Source: Acidobacteriota bacterium
Lineage (GTDB): Bacteria; Acidobacteriota; Polarisedimenticolia; Gp22-AA2
Assembly: GCA_003223135.1 (NCBI GenBank)
Contig: QHXX01000032.1
Coordinates: 21,031-85,030, forward strand
DNA: 64,000 nt
Reading direction: 5' to 3'
Under the pieces are notes generated by a model. The model made no database searches and had not been told where the DNA came from. It saw nothing but the letters and a program-made list of their open reading frames with translations. This document shows, one piece after another, positions 4,681 to 21,144 of the stretch. Within the stretch, counting starts at the first letter, position 1. Each line of letters opens with the position of its first letter. Made by a program: the position numbers and the translations under genes.

Positions 4681-5015
4681 CGCTGAATCATCTCCGCGGG
4701 GTCCGCGTTTCGTCCAGGGTCCGCGCAGCATCCGGCCGGCCACTCTAGAGCGCCGCCTACGGACTGTCAAGGAAGGCGCGGAGTCGCGAAGCCTGAAAAG
4801 ACGGAGGCCATCGGGCCGTGACGGCCTCGGACAGGCTCCGCACAGGTTGTCGAGAAATTGACGCCCCGATCCGTGCGCGCCCGCCGGGCCGGCAGTGTCG
4901 CGCTCATCCCTGAACACCCCGAGCCTTGAATTGCCCCTCCTCGGACCATAAGTTTGCGCGGGCGAACGGAGATCTTGTCTCCTGCCAGGAGGATCGGCGG
5001 GGGAGTCGGGACCGA

Positions 5016-6293
5016 ATGTATTCCATCAACGAGGCTTTGGCGACCCTCCGGGGGGTGCCGCCCTGGGGGTGGGCCTGCGGCATTGTTGGGGCGCTGTTCG
5101 TCGGCTGGCTCCTGGGCCGGCCCGGAAGCCGCGGCTCGACCTCCAGGCGTCGCCCGCTCCGGCCCGAGGGCGATGTCACCGCGCTGCGCGACCTGAAGGC
5201 GACGGTGGCCCGTCTGGAGGCTGAAAACACCGCTCTCTCGAGCTTCTTCCTCCTGCTTCCGGATTTCACCAAGGAAATCAATTCGCGCATGGATCGGCGC
5301 GCCATTGCGCCTCTCCTCGCAAAGATCACCGAGCGGCTGTTTGCCCCGACCCAGGTCCTGCTCTTCCTGCTGGACGATCGCGTCAACACGCTGATCCTGG
5401 TCCAGCAGAGAGGATTGGCGGAAGACGTGAAGATCGGCTTCCAGGTCAAAATGGGCGAGGGCCGGATCGGCTGGGTCGCGCAGCACAAGGTCCCGATGGA
5501 CACCAATGACTTCATCCGCGAAATGCGCCAGTCGGGCGCCAGCCTCGAGGTGCCGGCGCACTTCCGGTTCAAGACCGAGCTGTGCGCGCCCATGGTGCAC
5601 GAGGGGCGCGTGCTGGGCGTCATCAGCGTCGGCGGAGTCACCAGGCACTACAAGTACGAGAAGACCCTGCTGAACCTGATCGCCGACCTGGGCAGCATCG
5701 CGCTGCACAACAACCATCTCTTCTCTCAGGTCCAGGAGATGGCGAACTCCGATGGTCTGACCAAGCTCTTCAACAAGCGGTTCTTCATGAGCCAGCTCTC
5801 GGAGGAGATCCTGCGGGCGGAGGCAGGTCACTACCCCGTGTCGGTGTTCATCTTCGACCTGGATCATTTCAAGCACTATAACGACACGCAGGGACACCAG
5901 GCGGGAGACGAGGTGCTCAAGGTCACGGGCCAGATCCTGCGCGAAATGGTCCGGCCGGACGACACGCCGGCGCGGTACGGCGGCGAGGAGTTCATCGTCA
6001 TCCTGCCTCAGACGCCCAAGGACGGCGGCATGGTCGCCGCGGAGCGGATCCGCGTCAGGGTCGCGGAGCATCCGTACCCGAACCGCGAGAGCCAACCGCT
6101 CAAAGTCGTTTCTCTGAGCGGCGGCGTCGCCACGTTCCCGGACGACGGCCGCAGCAGCACGGATCTCATCGCCTCGGCGGACGCGGCCCTGTACCGCGCC
6201 AAGCAGGCGGGGCGCAACCGGGTCATGCGCGCCGAGACCAAGTATTTCTCGGACGGTAACGAAGACGCGTATTACAAGGTGAACAACGGCTGA
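5016..6293 (+). CDS. GAF domain-containing diguanylate cyclase (GGDEF)
   Basis: ATG at 5016 (MYSINEAL). Central GAF region, then the GGDEF domain with RYGGEEF, the FDLDHFKHYND motif and an inhibitory-site RxxD. Confidence 0.8.
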   Translation: MYSINEALATLRGVPPWGWACGIVGALFVGWLLGRPGSRGSTSRRRPLRPEGDVTALRDLKATVARLEAENTALSSFFLLLPDFTKEINSRMDRRAIAPLLAKITERLFAPTQVLLFLLDDRVNTLILVQQRGLAEDVKIGFQVKMGEGRIGWVAQHKVPMDTNDFIREMRQSGASLEVPAHFRFKTELCAPMVHEGRVLGVISVGGVTRHYKYEKTLLNLIADLGSIALHNNHLFSQVQEMANSDGLTKLFNKRFFMSQLSEEILRAEAGHYPVSVFIFDLDHFKHYNDTQGHQAGDEVLKVTGQILREMVRPDDTPARYGGEEFIVILPQTPKDGGMVAAERIRVRVAEHPYPNRESQPLKVVSLSGGVATFPDDGRSSTDLIASADAALYRAKQAGRNRVMRAETKYFSDGNEDAYYKVNNG

Positions 6294-6308: not shown

Positions 6309-7094
6309 ATGCAGAGTCGCCGCCGGAAGCTGGTGAAGGATCTCAAGGAGCGAGGCGAGCTCCGGGGCTCGAGCACCGCCGGGGCGCTCACCGACCTTCT
6401 GTACGACGAGCTCACCGACCTGCCGACCGTGCCGCTGCTCCTCGGCCGGATCCGTCGCCTGTTGAAGGAATCGCGCCAGCTGGGACTCCTGTCCATCAGC
6501 GTCCTGCAGAATGAGCGCGGAGAGCAGACCCTGGGATGGCAGGGGTACGAGTTTCTGGTGCGCAGCGTCGCCTCCTTCCTGGTCGAGATCAAGAAGGTCG
6601 CGCTCCGGCAGGACGACTACGTCTCCGAGGTGATGATCAGCGGCAACGCCTTCGTGATCCTGCTGTCACCACCGCGCGGCAAACAGGAGATCGCCTACAC
6701 CGACCTCGACAAGGTGCGGCGGCGCGTCGCCGCCAGGCTGGAGCGCTTCGTCCGGGATCGCCTGGCGGCCGAGGTGCAGGAAACGTTCGGTCTGTACGTC
6801 GGCTGCGCCGTGCTGATTCACAATTCCTCGGTGCGCTTCGAGCGTCTGGTCTACTCCGCTCTGGAGCAGGCCTTCACCGACTCGCTGCAGCAGCGCAAAA
6901 GGGAACAGCGCGACGCCGCGCTCAAGCTGAGGATGATCTTGAAGGCGGAGGCAGTCCAGCCCGTCTACCAGCCGGTCATTGATCTGCTGGAGCGGCGGGT
7001 GGTCGGATTCGAGGCCCTGACCCGCGTGTCGCCCGACGCCTTCGCCGGCCCCGACCAGCTGTTCAAGGCCGCCTACGACAACGACTCGGTCTGA
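6309..7094 (+). CDS. degenerate GGDEF-like domain plus N-terminal part of EAL domain (gene interrupted at 7092)
   Basis: LTDLPT...ISGNAFVILL aligns to GGDEF with the motif replaced by SGNAF. The C-terminus QPVYQPVIDL...GFEALTR...LFKAAYDNDSV is the start of an EAL domain, followed by a stop. Confidence 0.6.
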   Translation: MQSRRRKLVKDLKERGELRGSSTAGALTDLLYDELTDLPTVPLLLGRIRRLLKESRQLGLLSISVLQNERGEQTLGWQGYEFLVRSVASFLVEIKKVALRQDDYVSEVMISGNAFVILLSPPRGKQEIAYTDLDKVRRRVAARLERFVRDRLAAEVQETFGLYVGCAVLIHNSSVRFERLVYSALEQAFTDSLQQRKREQRDAALKLRMILKAEAVQPVYQPVIDLLERRVVGFEALTRVSPDAFAGPDQLFKAAYDNDSV

Positions 7095-7105
7095 TCGTCC
7101 TGGAA

Positions 7106-7492
7106 ATGACCGAGCACTCCGCGGTGCGCGACTTCACGTCACTGCGGCAGCTCCTCAGCTATCTCCAATTCCACGGGTTCCGGCTGGCGGTGGACGACGT
7201 TGGCTCGGGGTACTCGGGCCTGAAGTCCATCGCCGAGATCAAGCCGGACTTCATCAAGATCGACATGGCGCTCATCCGCGACATCCATCTTCATCCGATC
7301 AAGCAGGACCTGACCGGAACCATCGCCCGCTTCTCGACCAGCTCCGGCATCACTCTCATCGCCGAGGGGGTGGAGGGGTCCGAGGAACTGCGCTGCCTGC
7401 AGGCGATCGGCGTGCGCTACGCTCAGGGTTTCCTGTTTGCGCGCCCCGGGCCACCCTTCCCGCAGGCCGATCTCAGCGCCATCGAGGAGTAG
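7106..7492 (+). CDS. C-terminal part of EAL phosphodiesterase domain (continues the preceding gene in another frame)
   Basis: GLIVLEMTEH...LAVDDVGSGYSGL...IKIDMALIRDI...LIAEGVE...QGFLF are EAL motifs. The frame is open upstream across the stop of the previous ORF. Confidence 0.55.
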   Translation: MTEHSAVRDFTSLRQLLSYLQFHGFRLAVDDVGSGYSGLKSIAEIKPDFIKIDMALIRDIHLHPIKQDLTGTIARFSTSSGITLIAEGVEGSEELRCLQAIGVRYAQGFLFARPGPPFPQADLSAIEE

Positions 7493-7545
7493 GACGACCT
7501 TCCGTGCCCGTCCGTGATGAGACGGTGTTCACCTCGTGGCGCCCG

Positions 7546-7584
7546 AAGAATAGAGAAAGCCGCTTCATGAGACCGAAGCGGCTT
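7546..7584 (-). terminator. putative rho-independent terminator for the small minus-strand gene (also downstream of the EAL gene)
   Basis: Perfect 10-bp stem AAGCCGCTTC/GAAGCGGCTT with an 8-nt loop. On the minus strand it is followed by the U-rich ttctctattctt. Confidence 0.45.
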
Positions 7585-7659
7585 GGAACGATCGTGAGCT
7601 GCGGAGCGTTCGGTGCGAATCTCAGCCCTCATGGACTGGTCGGAGAAAGGCGACGTGCT

Positions 7660-7872
7660 CTAGACCGCCCGCTTCTCCTGGGCCTGCGACTGATTCCATG
7701 CGCCCATGATCAGGCACGTCTTGGCGGTCTCGACCTCGATCCAGCGCTGATACACCTTTCGGCGGGTCGGGTCAATCTGGTATGAAACGTTCGCATAGCT
7801 GAAATCGACCATCCCGTTCGACGGCCTGGACGAACGCTTCTTGCTGGCGACGGCGGCTTTTTTCTTCCTCAT
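7660..7872 (-). CDS. small basic hypothetical protein (70 aa) expressed from a sigma54 promoter
   Basis: ATG at 7872 is preceded by GGGAGGA. The protein is MRKKKAAVASKKRSSRPSNGMVDFSYANVSYQIDPTRRKVYQRWIEVETAKTCLIMGAWNQSQAQEKRAV. I recognise no family. Confidence 0.5.
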   Translation of the reverse strand: MRKKKAAVASKKRSSRPSNGMVDFSYANVSYQIDPTRRKVYQRWIEVETAKTCLIMGAWNQSQAQEKRAV

Positions 7873-7906
7873 CCCGAACGTCCTCCCGAAGGTTGTCACT
7901 CCAGTG

Positions 7907-7922
7907 AGCAATTTCCTTGCCA
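7907..7922 (-). promoter_or_regulatory. sigma54 (RpoN) -24/-12 promoter TGGCAAG-N4-TTGCT
   Basis: Minus-strand sequence tggcaaggaaattgct ends 35 nt upstream of the ATG at 7872. It matches the consensus TGGCACG-N4-TTGCW at 11 of 12 core positions, with GG and GC correctly spaced. Confidence 0.55.
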
Positions 7923-8058
7923 GAATTTCGTCGTCCGCAGCGCGATTTCACAATGCACAAGGGGGTCGTAACTAATTGAAAGAACAGCAGCTTGGGTAGG
8001 CAACGATCGATGCCGCATCGTGTTGCCTCTCCGCTCAACAGCGAAATCGGTTTTGATC

Positions 8059-8107
8059 TGTCACTCTGGCGTGCTTCTACATTGACAGAAATACGTCAAA
8101 GTGACAG
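8059..8107. promoter_or_regulatory. cluster of TGTCA/TGACA dyads (candidate enhancer/UAS for the adjacent sigma54 activator)
   Basis: The sequence is tgtcactctggcgtgcttctacattgacagaaatacgtcaaagtgacaga. It contains the palindrome TTGAC-N8-GTCAA and inverted TGTCAC...GTGACA. It lies about 140-200 bp upstream of the sigma54 promoter on the same strand sense, and a related tgtcactcc motif occurs at about 7882. Confidence 0.35.
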
Positions 8108-8134
8108 ACTTCGGAGGCTCATCGAGAGGTGACG

Positions 8135-9544
8135 ATGCCCGTTCAAGGCAAGCAGATCCTGCTCATCGATCCGGCCCAGCGTTTCGAGGTGGAGCTCATG
8201 CTCCGTGGTTTGGGCATGGACGTACGCTCCGTCGCGAGCCCGGCGGCGGCCCTCGACCTTGCGTCCCGCGACGACTTCGATATGGCCCTCCTCGACGTTG
8301 CGCTGGTCGGAGACGGCGACGACGATGTCGTGGCCAGGCTTCGCGCACAAACGACCATCCCCTCCATTCTGGTGCTGACAACCGAGGACGCGGTCCGCCG
8401 GGCCGTGCGTGCCCTCGAGCATGGGGCCGACGACTACCTGGTCCGGCCGCTGGAACGCGCCGAAGTCCGGGCCCGGCTGGCGCGCATCCTGGAGTGGCAG
8501 CACGCCGGTGACCGCGCCGTCCACCTCCAGAACGAGTTAAGCCGAAAATACCTGGTCGGCAACCTGGTCAGCCGTTCCGAGGGCATGCGGCGCGTGAGGG
8601 ACCAGATTCTCCAGGTCGCCGCGGCGCGCAGCACGGTGCTGATTCTGGGGGAGAGCGGCGTGGGGAAAGAGCTGGTGGCCAAGGCGATCCACTTCAACTC
8701 ACCCAGGCGCGAGGCGCCGTTCATCGCGATCAACTGCTCCGCCATACCCGTCAACCTGATCGAAAGCGAGCTGTTCGGTCACGAAAGGGGCGCTTTCACC
8801 GGTGCCTTCGGACGACAGAAGGGGAAGTTCGAGCTGGCCGACGGGGGGACCGTCTTCCTCGACGAGGTCGGCGACATGGACCTTCTGACCCAGGCGAAGC
8901 TGCTGCGCGTGCTGGAGGAGAGGGAATTCATGCGGGTTGGAGGCAGCCGCGAAGTGCGCGTGGACGTGCGGGTGCTGGCGGCGACCAACACCGACCTGGA
9001 CGATCTGATCCGCAAGAGCCGCTTCCGCGAAGATCTCTATTTCCGCCTCAAAGTGATTACCGTCCGCGTGCCGCCGCTGCGCGAACGGCAGGAGGATATT
9101 CCCGAGCTGGCGCGGGTGATCCTCGAGCAGATCCGGCGCGACAACGGGCTGAGGCCGCGTCGCCTGACCGCGCCGGCCGTGCGCCGTCTGCAGCGCTACC
9201 CGTGGCCCGGCAACGTGCGTGAGCTCAAGAACGTGCTGGAGAGCACCGCGATCACGCGCCCGGGCGACGTGATCCGCGAGAGCGATCTGCCGGCGGGCGT
9301 CCGCGGAGAGGACGGCCCGGGAGCGCCACGCGCCCACCCGCGCTTCGGGATTTCTCTCCGGGAGATGGAACGTGACCTGATCCGGCGGACGCTCCTGCGC
9401 CACGACGGCAACCGCACGCACGCCTCCCGGACCCTGCGCATCGGCGTGAGAACGCTGCAGCGCAAGATCCGCGCCTACGGCATTCGCGTGCCCGGTCCCC
9501 GCGGTCGGCGGGCCGGGCAGACTGCGGGCGTCATCAAAGGTTGA
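8135..9544 (+). CDS. sigma54-dependent Fis-family response regulator (NtrC-like: receiver + AAA+ + HTH)
   Basis: ATG at 8135 follows GAGAGG. Receiver domain (MALLDVAL), Walker A GESGVGKE, GAFTGA motif, R-finger region and a C-terminal Fis-type HTH. Confidence 0.85.
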   Translation: MPVQGKQILLIDPAQRFEVELMLRGLGMDVRSVASPAAALDLASRDDFDMALLDVALVGDGDDDVVARLRAQTTIPSILVLTTEDAVRRAVRALEHGADDYLVRPLERAEVRARLARILEWQHAGDRAVHLQNELSRKYLVGNLVSRSEGMRRVRDQILQVAAARSTVLILGESGVGKELVAKAIHFNSPRREAPFIAINCSAIPVNLIESELFGHERGAFTGAFGRQKGKFELADGGTVFLDEVGDMDLLTQAKLLRVLEEREFMRVGGSREVRVDVRVLAATNTDLDDLIRKSRFREDLYFRLKVITVRVPPLRERQEDIPELARVILEQIRRDNGLRPRRLTAPAVRRLQRYPWPGNVRELKNVLESTAITRPGDVIRESDLPAGVRGEDGPGAPRAHPRFGISLREMERDLIRRTLLRHDGNRTHASRTLRIGVRTLQRKIRAYGIRVPGPRGRRAGQTAGVIKG

Positions 9545-20334: not shown

Positions 20335-21144
20335 ATGATCCGTAAAGCCGCCGTGGCCGGTCAGTTCTACTCGGCCAACCCGGAGACGCTCCGGAACGAT
20401 CTGGTCGCGCTGACGCAGGGAATGTCCCCTCCGGCGGAACCGCGCGGCCTTGCGTTGATGGTGCCGCACGCCGGCTACAAGTATTCGGGAAGAGTGGCGG
20501 GGGAGACGTATACCGCCGCGCGCCTTGCGAAGCGTGCCGTCATCCTCTGCCCGAACCATACGGGCCTGGGAGAGGCCATCGCGGTCAACGATGAGGGCCA
20601 TTGGGAGACGCCGCTCGGCCGGATCCCGATCGACGCCTCCCTGGCGCGCGCCGTCCTTGCCGGCTGCCGGGAGGCGCGAGTCGACTGGGCGGCGCACAGC
20701 CGCGAGCACTCCCTGGAAGTGCAGCTGCCCTTTCTGCAGCACCTCCTGGGCGACCCGACCATCGTGCCGATCTGCGTCGGGACACTGAATCTTCGAGCGC
20801 TCCTCGACCTGGGGCGGGCGGTCTCTTCGGCCGTCGAGCAGGATGGGGGAGACGTCCTGCTGATCATCAGCAGCGATATGTCGCACTACGTCCCGGCGAC
20901 GGTCGCCAGAAAGCAGGACCATAAGGCGATCGAGCGCGTCGTGGCGCTCGATCCAGAAGGGCTCCACCGGATCGTCCTCGAGGAGGAGATCAGCATGTGC
21001 GGGATGGCACCCGCGGTCGCGGGTCTGGAAGCCGCCCGGAGGCTCGGGGCCGGACAAGCGCGGCTCGTCGCCTACGGCCACTCCGGTGAGACGACGGGGG
21101 ATTCGCGCTCTGTCGTCGGGTACGCCGGCGTCGTCGTCACCTGA
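20335..21144 (+). CDS. MEMO1-family protein (AmmeMemoRadiSam system protein B-like)
   Basis: AGQFY, VPHAGYKYSG, CPNHTG, LEVQLPFLQ and SSDMSHY motifs. Confidence 0.8.
   Translation: MIRKAAVAGQFYSANPETLRNDLVALTQGMSPPAEPRGLALMVPHAGYKYSGRVAGETYTAARLAKRAVILCPNHTGLGEAIAVNDEGHWETPLGRIPIDASLARAVLAGCREARVDWAAHSREHSLEVQLPFLQHLLGDPTIVPICVGTLNLRALLDLGRAVSSAVEQDGGDVLLIISSDMSHYVPATVARKQDHKAIERVVALDPEGLHRIVLEEEISMCGMAPAVAGLEAARRLGAGQARLVAYGHSGETTGDSRSVVGYAGVVVT

Follow-up and report, generated by a model that had tools for sequence, protein, structure and literature searches.

We analysed a 64,000-nt stretch of DNA from an Acidobacteriota bacterium of the Polarisedimenticolia (Gp22-AA2; positions 21,031 to 85,030 of contig QHXX01000032.1, assembly GCA_003223135.1), hereafter the window, and found that a gene for a 70-aa basic protein is very probably driven by a sigma54 promoter, TGGCAAGGAAATTGCT, under an enhancer-binding activator that is encoded divergently from it. 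By comparison with related loci, the two genes, the predicted promoter and the candidate binding sites between them form a unit that is conserved over many uncultured Acidobacteriota. An initial annotation of the window had proposed such an enhancer-dependent architecture, in which the activator controls the small gene, and the co-conservation of the gene pair, the promoter and the dyads speaks for that proposal. The regulatory architecture itself is textbook; the small protein belongs to an uncharacterised family.

The predicted -24/-12 promoter lies on the minus strand at positions 7907-7922, with its GG at 7921-7920 and its GC at 7909-7908. The initial annotation had noticed the element close to the ATG of the 70-aa open reading frame (ORF) at 7872, and the gap between them measures 34 nt. 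It fits 11 of the 12 specified positions of TGGCACG-N4-TTGCW, and the spacing from GG to GC is exactly 10 nt. Within the window it is the sole match to TGGCA-N6-TTGCW, for which dinucleotide-preserving shuffles give an expectation of 0.04; one or more matches occurred in 4 of 100 shuffles. The remaining -24/-12-like matches in the window are imperfect in the -12 region and lack an evident gene start. Standard sigma54 geometry would place the transcription start at 7896-7897 (minus strand), 11-12 nt past the -12 C at 7908, and would leave the small gene with a 5′ untranslated region (UTR) of about 24 nt. A Shine-Dalgarno sequence, GGGAGGA, occupies 7881-7887 (minus strand), 8 nt before the ATG. 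A probable intrinsic terminator (7557-7584, minus strand) lies 76 nt past the stop codon and consists of an 11-bp stem followed by UCUCUAUUCU. Because of this terminator-like hairpin and its U-rich tail, the transcript of the small gene would be monocistronic.

To see the module in its relatives, we scanned one genome per species, which yielded 33 loci (21 close, L001-L021, and 12 distant, L022-L033), and scanned metagenomes with an alignment of a remote subfamily of the small protein, which yielded 80 additional loci (L034-L113). An orthologue of the activator with 52-88% identity is divergently oriented about 260 bp from the small gene in all 32 genome loci that include upstream DNA, and the activator is likewise divergent in 47 of the 47 metagenome loci with more than 1 kb upstream. 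Across these pairs, identity falls to approximately 36% for the small protein and approximately 50% for the activator. The 21 closer genomes also share a wider synteny, comprising a DUF1611-family gene, an MR_MLE epimerase, an EAL protein and a GGDEF-GAF protein, and because this wider order is kept too, the pairing in these genomes alone proves little. In 11 distant genomes, including Ca. Polarisedimenticola svalbardensis and contigs labelled Terriglobia, the pair alone persists. Four of the contigs (L016, L018, L019 and L020) are labelled Cryosericum, Dongiaceae, Verrucomicrobiia and Patescibacteria, respectively; because they agree with the Acidobacteriota loci in gene content and synteny, they are probably mis-binned.

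The promoter is conserved together with the pair. TGGCA-N6-TTGCW is kept in 22 of the 22 close loci (the window and L001-L021), with the start codon 32-55 nt downstream, and the GGGAGG block of the Shine-Dalgarno sequence is kept in L001-L021. The more permissive pattern TGGYRYR-N4-YTG was found in all 12 of the distant genome loci and in 63 of the 72 from metagenomes; its background is 45 matches in 693 kb. Over all loci, the element stands 25-75 nt from the start of the small gene (34 of 34 genome loci, including the window, and 63 of 72 metagenome loci).

Upstream of the promoter, on the side where an enhancer would be expected, the initial annotation had pointed to several TGTCA/TGACA dyads. 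We found these at 137-199 bp from the promoter element: TTGAC-N8-GTCAA at 8082-8099, with TGTCAC at 8059-8064 and GTGACA at 8101-8106. A repeat search returned the same region as a 22-nt inverted repeat (8057-8078 and 8087-8108) that is 82% complementary. The palindromes are thus present where they had been placed, although the alignment divides the region differently. Across the window and L001-L021, the intergenic region is poorly alignable beyond the Shine-Dalgarno sequence, the promoter and a block of approximately 50 bp by the activator gene, which reads (C)TGTCACTTTGACGCA - N5 - GTCAA - N10-11 - CGYCAGAGTGACRGA. This block resolves as two 11-bp dyads of the form GYCA-N3-TGRC, the best-conserved blocks of the intergenic region, with a half-site between them. 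In the window, dyad A (GTCACTCTGGC, 8060-8070) is distal from the activator gene, and dyad B (GTCAAAGTGAC, 8095-8105), at 35 bp centre to centre from A, is 30 nt from the activator ATG; both are candidate enhancers. The central half-site TTGAC (8082-8086), which reads GTCAA on the strand of the small gene, is kept in the 22-locus alignment. From this pattern of conservation, the units under selection are the two 11-bp dyads and the central GTCAA half-site. TTGAC-N8-GTCAA was rejected as a conserved unit and is a by-product of the central half-site and the left arm of dyad B. The interval that had been suggested for footprinting, 8050-8110, does contain the conserved dyads.

Of the 33 genome loci, 29 have exactly two dyads, which are 35-36 bp apart in the close clade and 29-34 bp apart in the others; 55 of the 61 metagenome loci have exactly two as well, at a spacing of 29-34 bp. 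In background sequence, 42 dyads were counted in 329 kb and 18 in 300 kb, or roughly one per 8-17 kb. The window holds 11 other GYCA-N3-TGRC matches, all of them single and none with a second dyad nearby, and no further members of the regulon were found within it. In most loci, 120-190 bp separate the -24 T from the centre of the enhancer upstream of it; in the window the distance is 161 bp. The promoter and the dyads keep their relative positions in dozens of orthologous loci whose intergenic DNA has otherwise diverged, and are thus more than a chance resemblance.

Beside the dyads, we observed a 15-nt inverted repeat, AGTGACA[A/G][A/C]CTTCGG, whose copies at 7886-7900 (minus strand) and 8100-8114 (plus strand) are identical at 13 of 15 positions and lie 5′ of the two Shine-Dalgarno sequences. 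The copy in the 5′ UTR of the small gene retains a GTCAA(C) half-site in many orthologues and may represent an extra half-site for the activator downstream of the promoter.

The activator gene (8135-9544, plus strand) encodes 469 aa. The ORF list gives a GTG start at 8129, whereas the alignment of orthologues favours the ATG at 8135; the gene is preceded by a Shine-Dalgarno sequence, GAGAGG. Pfam assigns the domains Response_reg, Sigma54_activat, AAA_lid_14 and HTH_8 to the product. The receiver domain spans 8168-8479 and the AAA+ sigma54-interaction domain 8567-9064 (PF00158, E 2e-69, aa 147-312), with Walker A (GESGVGK) at aa 172, Walker B (FLDEVG) at aa 241 and an exact GAFTGA at aa 219 (8789-8806), in line with the divergent sigma54 activator that the initial annotation had recognized by this motif. 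The helix-turn-helix domain HTH_8 spans 9353-9478 (PF02954, E 1.2e-11, aa 409-450 in the numbering of the 471-aa ORF). Judged by its sequence, the protein has all the defining features of an NtrC-family enhancer-binding protein. It scored under the cut-off of all 25 NCBIfam equivalogs listed, the top one being AtoC with 382 bits against a cut-off of 714. Because it lies under every named NCBIfam equivalog cut-off, we regard it as a member of an unnamed orthologue group.

The small-protein gene (7660-7872, minus strand) is supported by its ORF, its homologues and a codon-position test. Its product has an isoelectric point of 10.4 and contains 8 Lys, 7 Arg, 2 Asp and 3 Glu, so that of its earlier description as a lysine-rich protein of 70 aa the length stands and "basic" is the apter word. 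A word-indexed search found 124 homologues, most of 64-72 aa and all unnamed, in metagenome-assembled genomes of Acidobacteriota and Polarisedimenticolia and in metagenomes. Their alignment has an invariant core, YQIDPxRRKVYxRWxEVETAKT, preceded by a tail that is variable and always basic. An exhaustive search with a profile hidden Markov model, a check that the initial annotation had named, returned just 49 clusters from 1.84 billion representatives, all of 53-132 aa, and among these 49 clusters no fusion to an informative domain was found. Since the clusters are so few and all short, the family is narrow and never fused. Comparisons with Pfam, NCBIfam, PDB sequences and PDB folds gave no significant match, literature searches did not return the family, and on these comparisons the protein belongs to no described family, as had been supposed. 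AlphaFold2 predicts a disordered basic N-terminal tail (aa 1-20) followed by a core with a confidence (pLDDT) of approximately 90, in which a three-stranded beta-meander (strands 22-26, 29-34 and 39-42) is followed by a C-terminal helix (49-68).

The short transcript (approximately 310-340 nt), which is monocistronic and has a terminator of its own, together with the absence of a known family for the encoded protein, could also be read as a regulatory RNA whose ORF is untranslated. The substitution pattern makes this reading very improbable. Compared pairwise, 19 orthologues differ on average by 0.13, 0.15 and 0.34 per site at the first, second and third codon positions, respectively; this third-position excess of 2.5-fold is a signature in the sequences of purifying selection on the protein. 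The Shine-Dalgarno sequence and the ATG are conserved, amino acids are conserved over the 124 homologues (49 clusters at 50% identity) of similar length, and the predicted core is confident. Rfam gave no family in 7400-8300, and the 3′ region folds no better than shuffled sequence (z = -0.5). Because of the third-position excess, the kept Shine-Dalgarno sequence and the 124 homologues of constant length, we consider the small ORF a translated gene. Our best guess, held with low confidence, is that its product is a stress-induced effector that binds nucleic acid or the activator.

The domains of the activator, the -24/-12 element and the placement of the dyads at the distance of an enhancer fit the standard mechanism of enhancer-binding proteins, for which binding to upstream activating sequences, looping and the role of IHF have been reviewed (PMC7175178); such activator genes are commonly divergent from their own sigma54 target promoters (PMC4641369). 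In the module, dimers of the activator would bind the dyads at 8060-8070 and 8095-8105 through the C-terminal Fis-type helix-turn-helix and assemble as a ring, with approximately 160 bp of DNA looped out, perhaps with the assistance of an A+T-rich patch between promoter and enhancer (7966-7990). ATP hydrolysis and the GAFTGA loops would then open the closed complex of sigma54-RNA polymerase at TGGCAAG-N4-TTGCT (7922-7907). The product would be a short monocistronic mRNA that starts near 7896, carries the Shine-Dalgarno sequence GGGAGGA, ends at the 7584-7557 terminator and encodes the 70-aa basic cytoplasmic protein. The dyads stand 30-75 nt before the activator ATG in the window, and the nearest dyad is 15-85 nt from the activator start in nearly all loci. 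Because they are so near this start codon, they probably also serve autoregulation, and their occupancy would repress or tune the activator gene. We infer the binding to the dyads, the sigma54 dependence, the transcription start and the autoregulation from the sequence.

Several observations weigh against parts of this reading. A C at -12 is the usual hallmark of sigma54 promoters, and it is confined here to the clade of the window, in which all 22 loci read TTGC. TTGA is found in each of the 12 distant genome loci (L022-L033), and among 63 metagenome loci the base is A in 30, G in 21, T in 12 and C in none. Because the C is replaced by A, G or T, the sigma54 element is atypical in the relatives, which (L022-L033 and L034-L113) retain TGGYAYG and TTG; the alignments show a conserved, non-consensus -12 element outside the window clade. 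An rpoN gene was not found within the window. A scan with the sigma70 consensus of E. coli gave no promoter for the activator gene, and because no sigma70-type promoter was detected, autoregulation is argued from position only. The A+T-rich patch is a weak feature that might be a bend or an IHF/HU site. Its region, from -80 to -50 relative to the TGG, has an A+T fraction of 0.49-0.59 in the 22 loci compared with 0.33 overall, and TTTCAATTAGTTA (7981-7969, minus strand) inside it differs by 1 mismatch from the IHF consensus WATCAANNNNTTR. The match is weak, occurs with at most 1 mismatch in only 7 of the 22 loci, and leaves an IHF site poorly supported, so that we did not retain it. Finally, the receiver of the activator departs from a functional phosphorylation site. 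In the window copy, the Asp of LLDVAL aligns with the phosphoacceptor of solved PDB receivers and the Thr is also retained; the Mg-binding Asp is missing, with Asp-Pro (ILLIDPA) in place of the acidic pair (ILVVDDE), and Arg replaces the invariant Lys (DDYLVRP compared with DDYxxKP in PDB receivers).

The missing -12 C in the relatives, together with the position of the dyads at 30-75 nt from the activator start codon, which is typical of operators, would also suit an arrangement in which the dyads are an operator only, of the activator itself or of another regulator, and the -24/-12 element is served by another activator or is non-functional. We consider this improbable. The promoter, the dyad pair and their spacing are kept together in approximately 90% of more than 90 loci, the distance of 120-190 bp is typical of enhancers, no second activator gene has been kept in the vicinity, and the sole promoter-grade sigma54 site in the 64 kb faces this activator.

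The receiver bears on how the activator is controlled. Most orthologues have Gly, Ala, Pro or Ser in place of the phosphoacceptor; Ala usually stands in for the Thr and the Lys varies, while the receiver fold and the motifs EFDMAL and GADDYL are retained. A complete phosphorylation pocket is thus not conserved among the orthologues. The label "response regulator" in the initial annotation holds for the presence of a Response_reg domain and does not extend to its phosphorylation pocket, which is incomplete. No kinase gene adjoins the activator in the window or in the related loci, as judged from the adjacent genes covered; the neighbours of the module are the MR_MLE epimerase, the EAL protein and the GGDEF-GAF protein. 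Because the receiver is degenerate, ordinary His-Asp phosphorylation control is doubtful, and control by a ligand, a partner protein or the abundance of the activator is more likely than canonical phosphorylation. On this sequence evidence, the activator family is probably not under His-Asp phosphotransfer control.

The two-gene feedback switches PspA-PspF, HrpV-HrpS and FliX-FlbD are the systems to which the module may be likened if the small protein acts on its own activator. The atypical receiver and the precedent of FlbD motivate this explanation, in which the small protein would inhibit or stimulate the activator through the degenerate receiver or the AAA+ ring; it extends the sigma54-promoter reading and is compatible with it. 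Its evidence is the strict co-occurrence of the pair down to the lowest identities given above, the retention of the receiver fold and of EFDMAL and GADDYL despite the loss of the phosphoacceptor Asp in most orthologues, the Pro and Arg substitutions of the window copy, and the lack of an adjoining kinase gene. In Caulobacter crescentus, FlbD, whose receiver is likewise divergent and lacks residues that phosphorylation requires, has no cognate kinase and is controlled not by phosphorylation but by direct binding of the small trans-acting protein FliX (PMC3096577). Nevertheless, a dedicated regulator with a single target would co-occur just as strictly, the small protein is dissimilar to PspA, FliX and any known anti-activator, and its long basic tail points to the binding of nucleic acid or membranes rather than of a protein partner. 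The resemblance to FlbD-FliX has further limits, in that the activator scores 325 bits against the FlbD equivalog cut-off of 750, FliX is unrelated in sequence to the small protein and its gene is not a sigma54 target of FlbD that lies next to the FlbD gene, and the module has no flagellar context. On balance, we regard a feedback role for the small protein as possible and rather unlikely. The same tentative standing applies to the wider proposal that the small protein provides the missing input to a pseudo-receiver activator that is independent of phosphorylation and acts at a class of promoters that tolerates any base at -12.

Taking the sigma54-promoter reading again, the closest textbook parallel is NtrC (NRI) at glnAp2 of enterobacteria. 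Both have the order of receiver, AAA+ domain (GAFTGA) and Fis-type helix-turn-helix, and in both a pair of dyads spaced by approximately three helical turns lies over 100 bp upstream of a -24/-12 promoter. NtrC activates by oligomerization and DNA looping, a general mechanism that has been reviewed (PMC7175178) and that is predicted for the module as well. Unlike NtrC, the activator is not an orthologue (TIGR01818, 374 bits against a cut-off of 559), its dyads are GYCA-N3-TGRC rather than TGCACC-N5-GGTGCA, its receiver is degenerate with no adjacent NtrB-like kinase, and the target is a 70-aa protein rather than a nitrogen-assimilation gene. ZraR-zraP and PspF-pspA of E. coli share with the module an activator that is divergent from the sigma54 promoter of a small protein gene, with the binding sites in the shared intergenic region. 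ZraP and PspA are small products that feed back on their own systems. The activator gives 313 bits against the ZraR cut-off of 760 and 270 bits against that of PspF, 444; ZraP resides in the periplasm and PspA is a coiled-coil protein of 25 kDa, whereas the module encodes a 70-aa basic cytoplasmic protein of beta-beta-beta-alpha order without homology to either. The one-component and orphan enhancer-binding proteins of Desulfovibrio vulgaris resemble the module in having a divergent activator and a motif in the shared upstream region, recognized through comparative genomics (PMC4641369), and differ in phylum, binding motif and target.

Several observations concern the surroundings of the module. 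An EAL-domain gene (6309-7492, plus strand), convergent with the small gene, is disrupted relative to the intact 449-aa orthologue of L001: aa 1-263 are in one frame (6309-7106), aa 318-449 are in another (7094-7489), and approximately 54 EAL residues are gone. It is fragmented too in the closest public relative, GCA_036841725.1 (L114), and represents a pseudogene or else an assembly error common to both. A GAF-GGDEF diguanylate cyclase gene (4926-6293, plus strand) and the broken EAL gene flank the module in the window, and their counterparts do so in 13-17 close relatives, not in the distant ones. Beyond this adjacency, we saw no link of cyclic-di-GMP to the atypical-receiver activator. In 11 of 11 distant genomes (L022-L024 and L026-L033), a Redoxin/FG-GAP gene lies 60-400 nt downstream of the small gene on the same strand; its product of approximately 490-660 aa combines a TlpA-like AhpC/TSA-Redoxin domain (WxxWCxPC) with FG-GAP repeats and has an N-terminus that by eye resembles a signal peptide. 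This gene may have its own promoter, and no homologue of it was found within the window. In L022-L033, TATAAT-like boxes (TATAAT, TTATAT, TAGACT and TACACT) stand 5-10 nt before several start codons of the activator and of the Redoxin/FG-GAP gene, and boxes so near the starts suggest leaderless mRNAs in these Acidobacteriota.

Soils and sediments are rich in Acidobacteriota, whose genetics has hardly been touched. The module offers a complete testable circuit for them, consisting of an activator, a GYCA-N3-TGRC motif in two copies, a promoter and a single target. Because this circuit is conserved in Polarisedimenticolia and in contigs labelled Terriglobia, it would supply an inducible sigma54 part ready for use and open a way into the small-protein family. 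The degenerate receivers provide a natural series for the control of sigma54 activators without phosphorylation, and the clade-specific loss of the -12 C provides one for the reading of a non-consensus -12 element by sigma54. If the feedback role of the small protein were true, the family would be a new one of small modulators of sigma54 activators across the Acidobacteriota.

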